A stretch of DNA of 32,000 nt from a virus. Made by a program: the position numbers and the translations under genes. Shown piece after piece: positions 15,219 through 22,083 of this stretch. Under the pieces are notes generated by a model that saw only the letters and a list, made by a program, of their open reading frames with translations, did not search any database and had not been told where the DNA came from. Each line of letters opens with the position of its first letter. Positions within the stretch are counted from its first letter, which is position 1. The stretch covers positions 327,683 to 359,682 of the IMG/VR virus record IMGVR_UViG_3300017971_000185; one strand, written 5' to 3'.

Positions 15219-15368
15219 TGGGAGACACAGGATCTCGTTTCGAGGTCACAAGCACGGTAAGACGCAGCATTCATAACGCTGAGACTGTGGGTTCAATCCC
15301 CACCCCCGCTTTCATGGCGGGGTAGTCAAATCGCAAGAACACCTGACACACTCTCCTGTGTCCTCCCG
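15219..15368 (+). ncRNA. circularly permuted tRNA(CAU)-like module closed by a long helix with a bulged C (Y-RNA/YrlA-like candidate A)
   Basis: Order: D-3' half GGTAA-GAC, anticodon-like arm (loop TTCATAA), T arm GTGGG-TTCAATC-CCCAC, CCCCGCT, 5-nt loop, GGCGGGG, TA, D-5' half GTC-AAAT. Flanks 15220-15232 and 15354-15367 pair (13 bp plus 1 bulged C). Confidence 0.6.
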
Positions 15369-15412
15369 ACCCTTCCAGACTTCAACCCGCAACCCGAAAG
15401 GAGGACAATCTG

Positions 15413-15538
15413 ATGCCTGACGATGATGACGATGACGATGATCGCTTGCCCGCGTTGGTGAAGTCTGGTCTATCACGCTTGGTTGTCAGCCAAGAGGTCA
15501 TGGGTTCAAATCCCATACGCGGGGCTGGAGGTCCGTAA
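15413..15538 (+). CDS. leader-type mini-ORF MPDDDDDDDDRLP... running into tRNA-Asp (probably regulatory if translated)
   Basis: SD AAAGGAGG (15397-15404), ATG 15413, eight consecutive GAC/GAT codons at 15419-15442. tRNA-Asp(GTC) begins at 15449 and the stop lies inside tRNA-Val. Confidence 0.3.
   Translation: MPDDDDDDDDRLPALVKSGLSRLVVSQEVMGSNPIRGAGGP
15449..15524 (+). tRNA. tRNA-Asp(GTC)
   Basis: Acceptor CCCGCGT/ACGCGGG, D stem GTGA/TCAC, anticodon loop TTGTCAG, T arm ATGGG-TTCAAAT-CCCAT. Confidence 0.88.
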
Positions 15539-15602
15539 CTCAGTTGGTCAGAGTGCCGCCCTTACAAGACGGAAGTCGCCGGTTCAACTCCGGCCGGGCC
15601 TA
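15529..15602 (+). tRNA. tRNA-Val(TAC)
   Basis: Acceptor AGGTCCG/CGGGCCT, anticodon loop CTTACAA (one C:A mismatch in the stem), T arm GCCGG-TTCAACT-CCGGC. Confidence 0.85.
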
Positions 15603-15643
15603 CAAAGGAAGGTTTTGGAGTATATACAGGAAGGAGCGAAACC

Positions 15644-16183
15644 ATGAACGGAGAAGCATTTGCATTTTCCGACGAATCGCGCAAAGCTCAGTTTGGCGCG
15701 ACTAAAGTCTGTTCTAGGTGTCGTAGGGAGCTTCCTGTTGCCGACTTTTCGTATGCGAGCCGTGTAAAGCTCTATGCCTGGTGTCGCGACTGCGCACGGA
15801 CTTATCAGCGGGAAGTCTATCGGACGTTTGAGGGGCAGATGAAGCATCGGGTTCGTGCGGCGCGAGGAAGGGCTCAGCGATTTGGTTTAGATTTCGATCT
15901 TGCCGTTCAGGATCTTCTTGAGTTGTGGGACGAACAGGACGGGAAGTGTGCAATTTCAGGATTGCCCATGGTCATCGATAGCGAAGAGGAGAAAGGGAAG
16001 CAAGCGTTTCGTCCGTCCGTTGACCGCATCGTTCCGAAACGCGGATACGTTCGGGGGAACATTCGGCTGGTGACGACTATCGTAAACTTCGGGATCAACA
16101 AGTGGGGTCTCGATCCGTTTCTTGCCATGTGCGAAGGTGTTGTTCAAACCATAGGCGAAAGGAAGGCATACCATGACTGTTGA
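15644..16183 (+). CDS. HNH-like endonuclease, paralog of 6189-6770
   Basis: Same N-terminal CxxC..F.Y...C..C layout as 6189-6770; C-terminal SVDRIVPKRGYVRGNIRLVTTIVNF; again sits directly after a tRNA block. Confidence 0.6.
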   Translation: MNGEAFAFSDESRKAQFGATKVCSRCRRELPVADFSYASRVKLYAWCRDCARTYQREVYRTFEGQMKHRVRAARGRAQRFGLDFDLAVQDLLELWDEQDGKCAISGLPMVIDSEEEKGKQAFRPSVDRIVPKRGYVRGNIRLVTTIVNFGINKWGLDPFLAMCEGVVQTIGERKAYHDC

Positions 16184-18065
16184 AAACCTGGGGCCTGCTG
16201 AAAAGATCATCCAAGCTCTTTTGACGCACACGGACCATCTCTACCACAACCGACCGGGAATCGTGGTTGCCGACCGGCGTACCACGACTGGCGTGCGGTG
16301 GGATCCTGTCACGTGGAAGGCAGGCGAGAACGGTGAGCGTACCGTCTACCGTTTGGTGAAGGCGGGACGTAAGCAGCGTCGTGTCGAGATCGGCACGATG
16401 AACGGCGAGAACCGCAAGATCATGAAGGACGGAGCCGAGGTAGGCGAGTACCGTCCGAGCGGCTTGTACCCCGAAGTCGCCATTTGGTTCTACAAGCAAG
16501 TTGCCGAAGTGTGGAAGCTGGACAACGAGTTTGCCGCACGTTGGGCATCGTTCGCGTTCCGTCAGGACCACCGCGATCTCAAGGTCGTTCTGGCCGCCTT
16601 CCTCTTGGTCCAGTCGCGTAAGGGCGATCCCGTCATGGACGGCATGGTCCGTCTGTTCGCGGATGAGGACTACAGGGACGTGGGCGAGGCGATGATCTTG
16701 CTCCAAGAGAAGGGCAAGGATCTCAACCCGAAGCTGTTGCTCCGCATCTGGGAGGTTCTCTCGTTGCCGGAGATCGCGGCTGTCAACCGCGAGCTTGGTT
16801 TCGGCAAGTCGGCAAAGCGTCCATTCCTGGGTCGTTGGAGCAGGGCGGTCGAGAAGTGGCTCCGCTACCGTGAAGAGAACCCGAAGATGCTGGAGGGTCT
16901 CGTCAAGGCCGGATTCAGAACCACGGTGATGACGCTTGCCCGGAAGATCGGCTACAAGCCCACGACTGATCGGTTCTTCGAAGTCCTGCGCTGGAAGCAG
17001 AAGCAGGCCGAAGATGGCCGTCGTGAGATGGCGATTGGCAAGGAAGTCAAGGCGGCCGAGTCTTGGGCGGATCTCGATGAAATGTCGATCTGCGAGATCA
17101 TCGAGAAGACCAAGCCGAATTGGAAGCGGATCGTTGGTTTGCTTCCTTCCGAGGTTGGCGTGACCCGTGCAATCATGGCTGCGGCCATCGAGGCAGGCTC
17201 TCTGTCGGACAAGGACATCATCATCCTGACGCCGACGTTGGAGGAGCTTGGGCTGCTCAAGGTCCAAGAGATCAAGGAACGTCTCGACTCGGCCCTGGCT
17301 CGGGCGAACGACATGCGTGCGGCCAACATCGCTCGCAACGTCCGTGACAAGGAGACCAAGGAGACGCTGGAGGCGGGTGCCGACAAGGCCGCTCAGAAGG
17401 TGGTCGAGGAAGTCGCACGCGACATCACCATCGACTTCATCGTTGACATTTCGGCTTCGATGGAAGGCGCCCTGGATGCGGCCAAGCCGCTCATCGCCAA
17501 GTTTCTCCAGGCCCTTCCGGCTGATTACGTCAATGTTGCCGTGTTCAACACGGCAGGCCGTGAGGTCAAGGTCAAGCACAACTCGACCAAGGGCGTCGAG
17601 GCCGCTTTCCGCGGCATCAAGGCCGGAGGAGGCACTGACTACGGTGCGGGTGTGCGGGCAGTCCAGAAGCACGCGACCCCGGAAGGCCACGATCGCATCA
17701 TGGTCTTCATTGGGGATGAGGAAGCACGGCCGTTCGATGAGGCTGTGAGGGTGTCGGGTCTCAACCCGGTTGCCTTCGGATTCCTCAAGACGGTTCCCTT
17801 CGGAGGAGCCGCAGCGTGGCGTTATCGGCACTACGGGCCGGACGGCAACATCGCAGTGCGGGAGACGGCTGCTCGTCTCAACATCCCATGCTTCATGATC
17901 GATGACCGCACTTTCGAGGACCCCTACGCAATCACTCGCACTCTCCAGGCTTTGATTGCGGCGACTCCGGTTGGGGAAGTGACTCAGGCTCGTCCGCGTC
18001 CGCGCGTGACGCTCGTTGATCAGATTCTCAACACTGAGTTGCTTGCTAAGCCCGCATGGGCATGA
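16173..18065 (+). CDS. Ro60-like protein: helical TROVE-like N-terminal region plus C-terminal vWA domain
   Basis: MIDAS VDISASM (human Ro60 has VDVSASM as I recall), AGGGTDYG, MVFIGDEE; upstream LGRWSRAVEKWL ... LARKIGYKP resembles the TROVE WGR..R.A...WY ... LRLSH.KP segment. Start overlaps the previous gene by 11 nt. Confidence 0.65.
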   Translation: MTVENLGPAEKIIQALLTHTDHLYHNRPGIVVADRRTTTGVRWDPVTWKAGENGERTVYRLVKAGRKQRRVEIGTMNGENRKIMKDGAEVGEYRPSGLYPEVAIWFYKQVAEVWKLDNEFAARWASFAFRQDHRDLKVVLAAFLLVQSRKGDPVMDGMVRLFADEDYRDVGEAMILLQEKGKDLNPKLLLRIWEVLSLPEIAAVNRELGFGKSAKRPFLGRWSRAVEKWLRYREENPKMLEGLVKAGFRTTVMTLARKIGYKPTTDRFFEVLRWKQKQAEDGRREMAIGKEVKAAESWADLDEMSICEIIEKTKPNWKRIVGLLPSEVGVTRAIMAAAIEAGSLSDKDIIILTPTLEELGLLKVQEIKERLDSALARANDMRAANIARNVRDKETKETLEAGADKAAQKVVEEVARDITIDFIVDISASMEGALDAAKPLIAKFLQALPADYVNVAVFNTAGREVKVKHNSTKGVEAAFRGIKAGGGTDYGAGVRAVQKHATPEGHDRIMVFIGDEEARPFDEAVRVSGLNPVAFGFLKTVPFGGAAAWRYRHYGPDGNIAVRETAARLNIPCFMIDDRTFEDPYAITRTLQALIAATPVGEVTQARPRPRVTLVDQILNTELLAKPAWA

Positions 18066-18072
18066 GGTCGTC

Positions 18073-21421: not shown

Positions 21422-21462
21422 ACCCATTTTCTGACAATCTTTCTGGCGATCATGCGCAACAC

Positions 21463-21590
21463 GGCGGACCAGGCCCGGTGGGGGCCAACCGACTTACACT
21501 CGGCAACGATCCGACACCAACACTCGCCTCTTTCGAGGCTCCTCGGTTGAATGTCCACAAGCTAGCCTGGTTCGATTCCAGGGTCCGCCT
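21463..21590 (+). ncRNA. tRNA-like RNA 2: paralog of RNA 1 (anticodon-like UAC) with a 61-nt variable-position insertion
   Basis: Acceptor GGCGGAC/GTCCGCC, D GGCC/GGCC, T CCTGG/CCAGG; every stem differs from RNA 1 by compensatory changes; inner hairpin GCCTC/GAGGC. Confidence 0.6.
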
Positions 21591-21592
21591 CT

Positions 21593-21722
21593 GAAGCGAC
21601 CAAACCCGAAAGGGCTCACAAGCAAAGAAGCTCATTTGGCTGAGCGTCTCGATCATAACGAGAAGGTAGCTGGTTCAACTCCAGTCCTTGCACTCTGTTC
21701 AGCCCCTCAACTCGGTCGCTTC
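21593..21722 (+). ncRNA. tRNA-like RNA 2b: paralog of 1b (loop ATCATAA, CAT), enclosed in a leader-trailer helix
   Basis: Core 21621-21693. GAAGCGACC 21593-21601 pairs with GGTCGCTTC 21714-21722 (A:U to G:C covariation relative to 1b). Confidence 0.55.
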
Positions 21723-21730
21723 CACTATTC

Positions 21731-21874
21731 GATCAACGCCAACAGATCAATCTCACAAGCATTGTTGGTTCGATTCCAACCCCCGCCACTCATGGCGGGG
21801 TAGCCAAATGGTAAAGGCACCGGTACAAGGAACCGGCGTGAAAACGCAATCAGGTTTTTCACTCGGCGTTGATC
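21731..21874 (+). ncRNA. circularly permuted tRNA-like module B (YrlA-like Y RNA candidate)
   Basis: Helix GATCAACGCC (21731-40) / GGCGTTGATC (21865-74); T arm 21764-80; CCCCGCC-A-CTCAT-GGCGGGG (21781-21800); D arm GCC-AAATGGTAAA-GGC; two further hairpins. Confidence 0.65.
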
Positions 21875-21930
21875 AACTTTCCCTTCTCGGGTGCGGCTCT
21901 CGCGAGCCCCCGATTTTCACCCCAACAGTA

Positions 21931-22083
21931 TTGGTCAATGCCAACAGATCAACCTCACAAGCATCATGTTGGTTCGAGTCCAACCTCCCCCACCCATGGG
22001 GGAGTAGCCTAACTGGAAAAGGCACCAGACGTGTAAATCTGGCGTGTAAACGCAATCAAGGTTTCTCACTCGGCGTTGACCAA
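21931..22083 (+). ncRNA. circularly permuted tRNA-like module C (YrlA-like Y RNA candidate)
   Basis: Helix TTGGTCAATGCC (21931-42) / GGCGTTGACCAA (22072-83); T arm 21968-84; CTCCCCC-A-CCCAT-GGGGGAG (21985-22004); D arm GCC-TAACTGGAAAA-GGC; stems covary with module B. Confidence 0.65.

Follow-up and report, generated by a model that had tools for sequence, protein, structure and literature searches.

Does a phage genome join a Ro60-type protein and tRNA-like RNAs to a ubiquitin-like conjugation system? This question is raised by a 32,000-nucleotide (nt) stretch of DNA (positions 327,683 to 359,682 of IMG/VR record IMGVR_UViG_3300017971_000185), hereafter the window, which is part of a huge phage and holds 27 tRNA genes. 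Positions given below are those of the window unless another locus is named. The window carries a gene for a 630-amino-acid (aa) protein with a vWA domain, followed by genes for a 309-aa protein, a JAB peptidase, a putative ubiquitin-like protein (Ubl) and an E1-like enzyme, and tRNA-like RNAs lie close by. Comparison with related loci indicated that a widespread phage family joins the gene of a probable Ro60-type protein to those of a Ubl, an E1 and a deconjugase, with diversified arrays of tRNA-mimic RNAs adjoining.

Conservation of Ro60-Y RNA particles extends from bacteria to humans, and Ro60 is an autoantigen in lupus and Sjögren's syndrome. In phages, Ro60 with Y-like RNAs is already known (PMC4201824), the phiRo60 protein of phage phiLo binds the phage-encoded Yrl1 and Yrl2 RNAs and the host PNPase (PMC12135203), and some jumbo phages are on record as having TROVE proteins (PMC7824862). 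Ro60 and ThiF-like proteins are both encoded by Asgard 'Nidhogg' viruses, a linkage between them not being described (bioRxiv 10.1101/2021.07.29.454249). No description of a Ro60-Ubl-E1-JAB module or of phage permuted tRNA-like genes was found in the literature, the coverage being incomplete and the result absence of evidence only. Within that limit, this is the first link that we could find between genes of an RNA-surveillance-type particle and ubiquitin-like chemistry.

Conservation of the cassette in huge phages

Five genes of the window proved to be conserved as a set:

16173 to 18065, plus strand: probable divergent Ro60-like protein, 630 aa (VWA_2 2e-10; remote Ro60 homology)
18073 to 19002, plus strand: conserved 309-aa partner protein (1426 homologs)
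19568 to 19954, plus strand: JAB/JAMM metallopeptidase, 128 aa (Prok-JAB 1.9e-4)
19944 to 20201, plus strand: putative ubiquitin-like protein precursor, 85 aa (C-terminus RPKTPFG plus one residue, Ser)
20475 to 21047, plus strand: minimal E1-like adenylating enzyme with ThiF fold, 190 aa (ThiF 8.9e-25)

For comparison we used 65 IMG/VR loci and further loci from metagenome assemblies (numbered with the prefix L), and 68 loci were compared with the window proteins by tblastn. The order 630-aa protein, 309-aa protein, JAB, Ubl, E1 was kept in about 58 of the 68 huge-phage loci. Among these order-keeping loci the identity of the vWA domain was as low as 46%, and unrelated genes were frequently inserted between the members. 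The conserved core is these five genes only, and the cassette is a module that a large clade of huge phages, with genomes of about 200-620 kb, has conserved within a tRNA/translation island. An 85-aa protein identical to that of the window recurs on a contig of 527,654 bp. The sole relative in GenBank is the uncultured 'Virus Rctr197k', in which the cassette genes are annotated as hypothetical.

The initial annotation had described eight chained open reading frames (ORFs) and had taken them as one unit. Every stop/start junction of the chain was reproduced, from the ORF table (15644-16183, 16173-18065, 18999-19571, 19568-19954 and 19944-20201) and from internal starts at 18073 (MGWRDLL, a start kept in all homologs), 20201, 20359 and 20475 (MKITIIGAG). 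As a unit, only the five-gene core stood; the HNH nuclease gene and both transmembrane (TM) micro-ORFs within the chain were not conserved members. A promoter and terminator scan of 14800-22500 was uninformative, with 1 promoter-like site against 2.2 expected.

Distant relatives of the 630-aa protein were collected by a search of 1.8 billion representatives. These proteins are of 519-613 aa and are without the N-terminal beta domain of the window protein. In a relative of 25% identity, a 292-aa gene, JAB (E 2e-6) and ThiF (2e-27) still lie downstream of the TROVE-like gene, and in another distant relative a gene of the 309-aa family (E 7e-10) was found two genes downstream. The core genes, for which linkage had been predicted, were thus found to stay together in homologous genomes, in part even in the 25%-identical relative. 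This linkage survives deep divergence and therefore argues for function, and not for inherited synteny alone. Two distant relatives separate the associations. The locus L082 (8001-11632) carries the TROVE-like gene with JAB and ThiF, and no RNA or tRNA was found within 8 kb; L080 carries the TROVE-like gene with anticodon-arm-less copies of the RNA described below and a 309-aa homolog, and has no detectable E1 or JAB.

Relationship of the 630-aa protein to Ro60

The 630-aa protein belongs to a family of more than 1800 homologs, all on contigs of huge phages, the contigs being up to 618 kb in length. In the AlphaFold2 (AF2) model (predicted local distance difference test, pLDDT, 77.5; predicted template-modelling score, pTM, 0.46), a beta domain of about residues 29-94 is followed by TROVE-like helices (about 100-417) and by a vWA domain (418-600). 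The MIDAS (metal-ion-dependent adhesion site) of the vWA domain, D425-x-S427-x-S429, T488 and D515, was invariant in 28 homologs.

For profile comparison, ten phage Ro60 proteins were assembled from GenBank phages, TROVE being verified by Pfam in three of them; as a control, these three indicate that phage Ro60 proteins do match the Pfam TROVE model. Alignment of the family profile with the phage Ro60 profile by hhalign gave 97.9% probability and E 5.5e-13 over 350 columns, in which residues 102-517 of the window protein were aligned to residues 55-423 of Ro60. After removal of the vWA domain, the helical region alone was still aligned over 248 collinear columns, with 50% probability and E 1.6e-4. 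A sequence search of the PDB, both with the single protein and with a profile of close homologs, gave vWA matches only. After addition of the distant relatives, the TROVE protein of phiLo was matched at E 1.3e-3, the alignment beginning about 110 residues before the vWA domain. With a helical-only profile, 9l5y and 9kop ranked first in the whole PDB in two collinear segments, at a non-significant E of 0.13. In the structure comparison by Foldseek, the sole full-length matches of the AF2 model were Ro60 proteins: 9kop and 9l5y of Thermus phage phiLo, frog 1yvr and 1yvp, and the Ro-like protein of Gordonia phage VanLee. These matches were of E 2.5e-7 to 1e-4 over about 500 columns, yet the template-modelling (TM) score was 0.21-0.27 and the root-mean-square deviation about 13 Å.

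We accept the 630-aa protein as a divergent Ro60 because of the profile and structure comparisons taken together with the invariant MIDAS. Judged from sequence, it is probably a divergent member of the Ro60 superfamily with an added N-terminal domain. Like Ro60, it has TROVE-like helices followed by vWA/MIDAS, and is remotely homologous to verified phage Ro60; unlike known Ro60, it has an extra N-terminal beta domain and gives no match to the TROVE hidden Markov model (HMM). The Ro60-like assignment of the initial annotation holds at the level of remote homology by hhalign and Foldseek, but no family HMM detects TROVE. This TROVE-like family of more than 1800 members is not recognised as TROVE by Pfam and is absent from current databases. 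Unlike any described Ro60, the phage protein is locked to the Ubl/E1/JAB set and to the 309-aa partner.

The Ubl, E1 and JAB proteins and the 309-aa partner

Both the E1 and the JAB that had been claimed for the cassette proved to be real. In the E1, GxGxxG, DxxDN and Cys147 were at least 95% conserved in 48 homologs, and the best NCBIfam models were ThiF, MoeB and the SAMP-activating UbaA at 3.7e-15. The JAB protein scored 21.7 against a cutoff of 25 for Pfam Prok-JAB, and its match to the desampylase model was weak (E 0.021). The JAMM residues E3, H-x-H-P and S-x-x-D were conserved in 44 homologs, and the position of JAB in the cassette is conserved as well.

As had been proposed, the 85-aa protein behaves like a putative Ubl precursor, with a conserved C-terminal PFG and a variable tail. 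In its 54 homologs a conserved (L/V)RPKTPFG is trailed by a variable stretch of 0 to about 75 residues; ten of the ORFs terminate at the Gly itself. In sequence terms, such a conserved PFG with a variable tail is the signature of a carrier whose C-terminal Gly would be exposed by a peptidase. The 1348 homologs of the family gave no Pfam match, and the PDB gave no sequence signal. No hhalign signal was obtained between the family profile and E. coli MoaD or human ubiquitin. Scans with Pfam, NCBIfam, PHROGs and PADLOC for TROVE, E2 and Ubl families yielded only vWA, HNH, a weak JAB and ThiF, and none of the cassette proteins matched a Ubl family. This Ubl family with a PFG terminus is absent from current databases.

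The 309-aa protein was found always directly downstream of the Ro-like gene in the compared loci, in agreement with the neighbourhood expected for this orphan. Its family of 1426 homologs gave no Pfam match. The AF2 model (pLDDT 84.7) is composed of a beta-rich N-terminal domain, a long charged helix of 48 residues (157-204) and a C-terminal alpha-beta4-alpha domain, in which Cys272 is invariant within a G-I-C-L motif. By Foldseek, nothing significant was matched by this model, the best being an S17-type OB fold (E 0.56) and dsRBD (about 0.8). From the motif itself, an E2-like role of G-I-C-L might be conceived.

Among known systems, the trio of Ubl, E1 and JAB appears from its sequences to most resemble the E1-only SAMP/UbaA/JAMM and TtuB/TtuC systems. 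As in SAMP/UbaA/HvJAMM1 and TtuB/TtuC, there is a small carrier with C-terminal Gly, a ThiF-type E1 with Cys and a JAMM protein, with no recognisable E2/E3. Unlike these systems, the trio is phage-encoded, the E1 is of 190 aa without a rhodanese domain, and the carrier ends in PFG with a variable tail and not in GG; the carrier showed no detectable sequence resemblance to SAMP, ThiS or MoaD, and the scores for UbaA and desampylase were far below the family cutoffs. Like Bil (BilA-D) and CBASS Cap2/Cap3, the cassette is a compact operon of Ubl, E1 and JAB deconjugase, and by PADLOC the E1-E2 model was matched at 9.7e-13 over the E1 part only, the JAB match being weak (4e-3). Unlike Bil and CBASS, the cassette has no detected E2 domain, is encoded by phage and not by host, and is coupled to a Ro60-like protein and RNAs, not to cGAS-like enzymes or tail targets. 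Membership in PRTRC was rejected, since the E1 scored just 34 bits against TIGR03736 (cutoff 145) and no cassette ORF matched the other PRTRC models including ParB.

A covarying family of tRNA-like RNAs

Seven tRNA-like RNAs were examined in the window:

15219 to 15368, plus strand: D-loop-permuted tRNA-like RNA (fold z -4.07; regular expression for T arm and self-complementary acceptor)
21164 to 21292, plus strand: tRNA-like RNA with open 7-bp acceptor (fold z -3.14; minimum-free-energy structure, cloverleaf plus arm)
21293 to 21423, plus strand: stalk-enclosed tRNA-like gene (10-bp stalk in fold; ARAGORN, Rfam)
21463 to 21590, plus strand: second open-acceptor tRNA-like RNA (fold z -2.90; regular expression)
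21591 to 21722, plus strand: second stalk-enclosed tRNA-like gene (fold z -3.56; Rfam 39.9 bits)
21731 to 21874, plus strand: permuted tRNA-mimic RNA (fold z -5.16; covariance model R1, 133.9 bits)
21931 to 22083, plus strand: permuted tRNA-mimic RNA (fold z -4.02; covariance model R1, 131.4 bits)

All seven fold as described, with z of -2.8 to -5.2. The initial annotation had called them all non-canonical. All are present and three are permuted with a loop-closed 7-bp acceptor, but the two at 21293-21423 and 21591-21722 pass the Rfam tRNA model and are odd only in their flanks and mismatched acceptor stems.

In the RNA at 21731-21874, the 5' part consists of a 10-bp terminal stem, stem B, CUCACAAGCA, the T arm and an acceptor closed by ACUCAU, and the 3' part of the D arm, an anticodon-like arm (loop ACAAGGA, without U33), a small hairpin and UCACUC. 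The RNA at 21931-22083 has a 12-bp terminal stem, an acceptor closed by ACCCAU and an anticodon-like loop of 8 nt, and is followed by UUUUU. In the upstream RNA at 15219-15368, the terminal stem is of 13 bp and is accompanied by the CACAAGCA motif, an anticodon arm with the loop UUCAUAA and a T arm; the acceptor is closed by UUCAU, with CACUC ahead of the 3' strand. This RNA scored 27.5 bits against Rfam tRNA, below threshold. In the open-acceptor RNAs, a closed arm of about 60 nt is inserted in the variable region (CACUCG, hairpin and CCACAAGCA in 21164-21292); the acceptor of 21463-21590 is GGCGGAC/GUCCGCC. The first stalked gene, 21321-21394 within 21293-21423, has the anticodon CGC and is called tRNA-Ala(CGC) by both ARAGORN and Rfam (53.8 bits), with two acceptor mismatches; its stalk is UGAAGCAACC / GGUUGCUUCA and its junction motifs are CUCACACGCA and CAACUC. 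The second, 21621-21693 within 21591-21722, has the anticodon CAU and is called tRNA-Met(CAU) by both programs, and its stalk of 9-10 bp, GAAGCGACC / GGUCGCUUC, shows a compensatory change relative to the first.

Permuted elements were found in many loci by regular expression, seventeen of them were aligned, and the covariance model R1 was built, copies being kept above 53 bits. By RNAalifold, the 17 sequences gave 27 pairs, 24 of them with compensatory changes. Among 45 full-length family copies, 95.5% of the cells were paired and 26 of the 27 modelled pairs covaried. These copies reached a covariation score of 0.87, compared with 0.23 in shuffles and no more than 0.17 in slid controls, the model-fitted alignment somewhat favouring structure. 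The window copies were found at E of about 1e-33 in the covariance model search. The RNAs are a genuine covarying structured family.

All share a constant arm, composed of stem A (variable and covarying, the two innermost pairs being C-G), an internal loop of approximately AAC on the 5' and CACUC on the 3' side, and stem B, with YUYACAAGCA and GCAA conserved at the junction. This arm was found in four topologies. In 21731-21874 and 21931-22083 it is open at the variable loop and the acceptor is closed; in 15219-15368 it opens at the D loop; in 21164-21292, 21463-21590 and 10 other loci it is closed within the variable loop and the acceptor is open; and in 21293-21423, 21591-21722 and about 29 stalked tRNA-likes near E1 it surrounds the acceptor ends. 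A covarying RNA family with a modular arm at four positions of the tRNA body is a natural experiment in RNA circular permutation, and the family is absent from databases.

A small signal recognition particle (SRP) RNA of bacterial type was detected at 22085-22177 (57.7 bits, gathering score 40), its start being right behind the last tRNA-mimic RNA.

Linkage of the RNAs to the cassette and comparison with Y RNAs

Of the non-redundant loci, 45 extend at least 700 nt beyond E1, and 26 of these have a strong permuted copy within 2.5 kb downstream of E1. In total, 30 of 43 strong copies fell in these post-E1 windows, which make up 11% of the sequence searched, indicating a 6-fold enrichment. Weaker arm-bearing copies were located behind E1 in several of the remaining loci. 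The open-acceptor type of 21164-21292 was found at 77-2470 nt downstream of E1 in 10 other loci, often 77-120 nt past the E1 stop, and 29 stalk-flanked tRNA-likes were located within 3 kb downstream of E1 across the loci. In L080, the anticodon-arm-less copies (2221-2355 and 3199-3309) are located 0.7-1.7 kb upstream of the distant TROVE-like gene.

The cassette had been described as bracketed by tRNA mimics on both sides. This could not be maintained, as the upstream RNA 15219-15368 is syntenic with a tRNA-Thr block and not with the cassette. Its orthologs L001:2811-2929 (53.5 bits) and L005:5465-5578 likewise follow a block of three tRNA-Thr genes, and in L001 the ortholog is 7 kb from the cassette. 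The bracketing is thus incidental, because this RNA travels with the tRNA-Thr block.

The RNAs resemble Y RNAs of the Rsr-YrlA and phiLo phiRo60-Yrl1/Yrl2 type in being encoded nearby and in having a long 5'/3' stem and the order of T arm, closed acceptor and D arm. This order, with a loop-closed acceptor inside the long stem, was found in three window RNAs and in the 45 family copies, with covariation in the terminal stem, the T arm, the acceptor and the anticodon-like arm alike. Unlike YrlA, most phage copies keep an anticodon-like arm, and they form multi-copy arrays in four topologies. Membership in Rfam YrlA (RF02553) was rejected: 21931-22083 matched model positions 30-81 (28.1 bits, E 0.0015) and 21731-21874 positions 29-81 (22.8 bits), against a gathering score of 69, the matches covering positions 29-81 only. 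The same Rfam model also matches junctions of ordinary adjacent tRNAs.

A possible RNP coupled to Ubl chemistry

The gene order, the motif conservation, the remote Ro60 homology, the RNA structure family and the enrichment near E1 are observations made directly on these loci. As their explanation we tentatively favour a Ro60-type ribonucleoprotein (RNP) with tRNA-mimic RNAs, genetically coupled to an E1-only (SAMP-like) Ubl system, giving it a little short of an even chance. RNA binding by the Ro-like protein and Ubl modification of the RNP would be its functional steps. On the model of Rsr-YrlA and phiLo phiRo60-Yrl1/2, the Ro-like protein would bind the RNA arm, in which stem A is followed by the CC/AAC//CACUC/GG internal loop, by stem B and by CUCACAAGCA at the junction. 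Enzymes or nucleases acting on tRNA, such as RNase P, CCA-adding enzyme, PNPase and host anticodon nucleases, would be presented with the tRNA-shaped body, and the RNP may protect, check or decoy tRNAs during infection. On the protein side, JAB would trim the variable tail to expose the PFG carboxylate, and E1 would adenylate the terminal Gly of the Ubl. The Ubl could be attached either by E1 only, in the style of SAMP/UbaA and TtuB/TtuC, or via Cys272 of the 309-aa protein. An RNP component or a host target may be modified, and JAB might also reverse the attachment. The MIDAS of the vWA domain may be where an acidic or C-terminal ligand docks. If the coupling is functional, a Ro RNP regulated by, or delivering, a ubiquitin-like modification becomes testable, as does tRNA mimicry in the conflict between phage and host anticodon nucleases.

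Several results speak against this explanation. No TROVE match was obtained with Pfam or NCBIfam in the window protein, its 28 homologs or 10 distant relatives, and the hhalign score derives mostly from the vWA domain. The model does not confirm the predicted ring, with pTM 0.46 and TM scores of 0.21-0.27. The Ro-binding motif GNCGAAN0-1G is absent from all seven window RNAs and from 38 of the 45 family copies; in the other seven it is located in or downstream of the tRNA-like body, not on the 5' strand of the terminal stem as in YrlA. The exit point of the stem from the body in the phage RNAs is the variable loop, the D loop or the acceptor ends, not the anticodon stem. The Y-RNA-like character initially assigned to these RNAs was thus supported by YrlA-like topology, but not by the Rfam YrlA threshold or by a Ro-binding motif. 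Thirteen of the 43 strong RNA copies are distant from the cassette, in L082 the cassette is retained with no such RNA inside 8 kb, and the adjacency is weaker than the counts suggest because of the surrounding tRNA island and the common descent of the loci. Finally, no E2 was found in Pfam, NCBIfam or PADLOC scans of the cassette proteins.

The RNAs may alternatively be odd precursors of working tRNAs (stalk-flanked, intron-like or permuted), matured by RNase P, 3' trimming, an endonuclease and an RtcB-type ligase to supply nuclease-resistant or rare decoders; the adjacency would then be that of the island only, and the cassette unrelated. We consider this unlikely, although it is the alternative that survives best. 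In 15 of the 45 copies the acceptor 3' strand is followed at once by N-CCA, sometimes with a trailer/leader-like hairpin and spacer beyond, and two window copies pass the Rfam tRNA threshold. By inspection, cutting the arm at its base leaves a cloverleaf in all four topologies. An RtcB gene 4 kb from the cassette in L003 and EF-Tu in the window agree with this possibility. As to processing, YrlA of M. smegmatis is cut by RNase P and given CCA, while other YrlA species are not (PMC4201824).

The acceptors of many other copies are sealed by a tight UUCG or GAAU tetraloop or by 2 nt, without CCA, and the stalked window copies have acceptor mismatches. The anticodon-like loop is of 7 nt in 38 of 45 copies and of 6 or 8 nt in some, U33 is present in only about 55%, and the anticodon arm is missing in L019, L033 and L080. 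The family thus departs from the canonical decoder expected of a processed permuted tRNA in U33, anticodon arm and CCA. The dispensable anticodon arm and the low frequency of U33 therefore fit a mimic and not a decoder, and the RNA features as a whole fit shape mimics better than decoders. In addition, the conserved sequence motifs of the arm would be superfluous for a mere processing stem, and the 6-fold enrichment just downstream of E1 also speaks against working precursors. Compared with known permuted genes, the RNAs are like the permuted tRNA genes of Cyanidioschyzon merolae and two-piece tmRNA genes in that the 3' half, with the T arm, the 3' strand of the acceptor and often N-CCA, lies upstream of the 5' half, with the 5' strand of the acceptor and the D arm, a short linker joining the two; unlike permuted tRNA genes, they show no bulge-helix-bulge at the RNA termini, have anticodon loops that are often non-canonical or absent, and in many copies carry a tight tetraloop as linker. 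A transfer-messenger RNA (tmRNA) was rejected, as ARAGORN found none and the RNAs are just 130-170 nt without a tag ORF; the lone permuted-tmRNA match (31 bits; L003 20845-20894) covers T arm and acceptor only.

The anticodons of the stalked tRNA-likes also favour working precursors. Among loci L001-L069, A34 anticodons other than ACG were found in 12 of 52 stalked tRNA-likes against 16 of 695 ordinary phage tRNAs, a 12.7-fold enrichment (Fisher p 5e-8, uncorrected for relatedness), and A34 could evade anticodon nucleases specific for Q34/G34. Examples, with a stalk of 8-12 bp, are L001 14814-14886, L003 21407-21480, L043 13466-13537 and L029 15409-15484, and the A34 anticodons observed are AUC, AUG, AUU, AAC, AAA and AAU. 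These six anticodons are not normally used by bacteria; AUC, AUG and AUU are the G34-to-A34 versions of queuosine-family tRNAs.

A second alternative places the function in the protein, the 630-aa protein being the vWA/MIDAS adaptor for a Ubl conjugation system that acts on proteins and serves the phage in host takeover or counter-defence, much as in vWA-containing conflict systems with Ubl/E1/JAB modules, and with its TROVE resemblance a matter of distant ancestry without shared function. The lack of a TROVE HMM match, the vWA domain driving most of the scores and the retention of the protein with JAB and E1 but without RNAs in L082 would suit this view, and bacterial conflict systems are known in which a vWA protein is found together with a complete Ubl system (PMC7159879). 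We regard it as quite improbable, in that the helical region alone is collinear with Ro60 (E 1.6e-4) and Ro60 tops the PDB list for the helical-only profile (E 0.13), RNA copies accompany even the distant L080 relative, and the module is consistently located among tRNA genes.

SAMP2/UbaA and TtuB/TtuC tie Ubl activation to tRNA thiolation. By this model, which includes ThiS, MoaD and Urm1, the Ubl and E1 would mainly be a sulfur carrier system for thiolating phage tRNAs or mimics, JAB maturing the carrier and the Ro-like protein holding the RNA substrate. The E1 best matches ThiF, MoeB and UbaA, and the cassette, set in a tRNA island, yielded no E2. Against it, no PP-loop thiouridylase, rhodanese or cysteine desulfurase was present in or beside the cassette, the carrier ends in a single Gly (PFG) and not in GG, and the conserved JAB with the invariant-Cys 309-aa partner suits conjugation better; we therefore hold this role to be very unlikely.

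Far less probable than any of these is that the tRNA mimics themselves act as the 'E2', the E1, whose adenylation of the Ubl Gly is the same chemistry as that of an aminoacyl-tRNA synthetase, transferring the Ubl to a 3'-CCA exposed by RNase P and trimming, and the resulting Ubl~RNA ester being held on the Ro-like protein to donate Ubl to targets or being handled by the phage EF-Tu: the missing E2, the N-CCA in one third of the copies, the position of the RNAs right after E1 and EF-Tu 9 kb away would allow it, while the many tetraloop-sealed acceptors without CCA and the L082 cassette without nearby RNA weaken it.

Sporadic genes and neighbouring features

Three further elements are located in or next to the gene chain:

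15644 to 16183, plus strand: EndoVII/HNH-type nuclease, 179 aa (phrog_1035 endonuclease VII 7e-22)
18999 to 19571, plus strand: HNH endonuclease, 190 aa (Pfam HNH 1.4e-8)
20201 to 20362 and 20359 to 20478, plus strand: two micro-ORFs (no tblastn match in the loci)

These genes, that is, the HNH, the EndoVII-like gene and both TM micro-ORFs, were ruled out as members of the unit by their sporadic or absent conservation across the loci. The stop of the EndoVII-like gene overlaps the start of the Ro-like gene by 11 nt, and such a gene was found upstream of the Ro-like gene in just 3 of the 68 loci; it is sporadic and probably a homing endonuclease. The HNH gene is an optional insertion between the 309-aa gene and JAB, being present there only in a few close relatives (L005, L020 and L053) and absent from most loci. 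The micro-ORFs gave no tblastn match in any compared locus; they are not conserved, and possibly not genes. The gap between Ubl and E1 ranges from 6 to 443 nt across the phages and, in phages other than that of the window, contains unrelated small ORFs.

In L003, from a related phage contig of 263 kb, a gene for RtcB RNA ligase (5845-7254) is located 2.7 kb upstream of the Ro-like gene. Bacterial rtcB is found in one operon with rsr and yrlA. Within the window, the minus strand at 12267-12944 encodes a 225-aa protein with a minimal ATP-dependent ligase/nucleotidyltransferase domain (DNA_ligase_A_M 2e-11), with a possible bearing on the repair of RNA or DNA close to the tRNA island. An EF-Tu gene (6987-8216, 409 aa; GTP_EFTU 3.6e-60 plus domains 2 and 3) is located among the tRNA genes.

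At 15397-15448, a strong Shine-Dalgarno sequence, AAAGGAGGA, is followed by ATG at 15413 and by eight consecutive Asp codons (15419-15442), which lead straight into the tRNA-Asp(GUC) gene at 15449-15525. The same layout was seen in a related phage (L004 6975-7030), with six Asp codons before what by eye appears to be a tRNA 5' end. This Asp-codon ORF looks like a leader peptide sensing the supply of Asp-tRNA.

Near the start of the window, a serine resolvase of IS607 type (1033-1779; Resolvase 1.2e-23, MerR helix-turn-helix) is followed by a TnpB/Cas12f-like OrfB (2500-3927), and the pair is a mobile element inside the phage genome.

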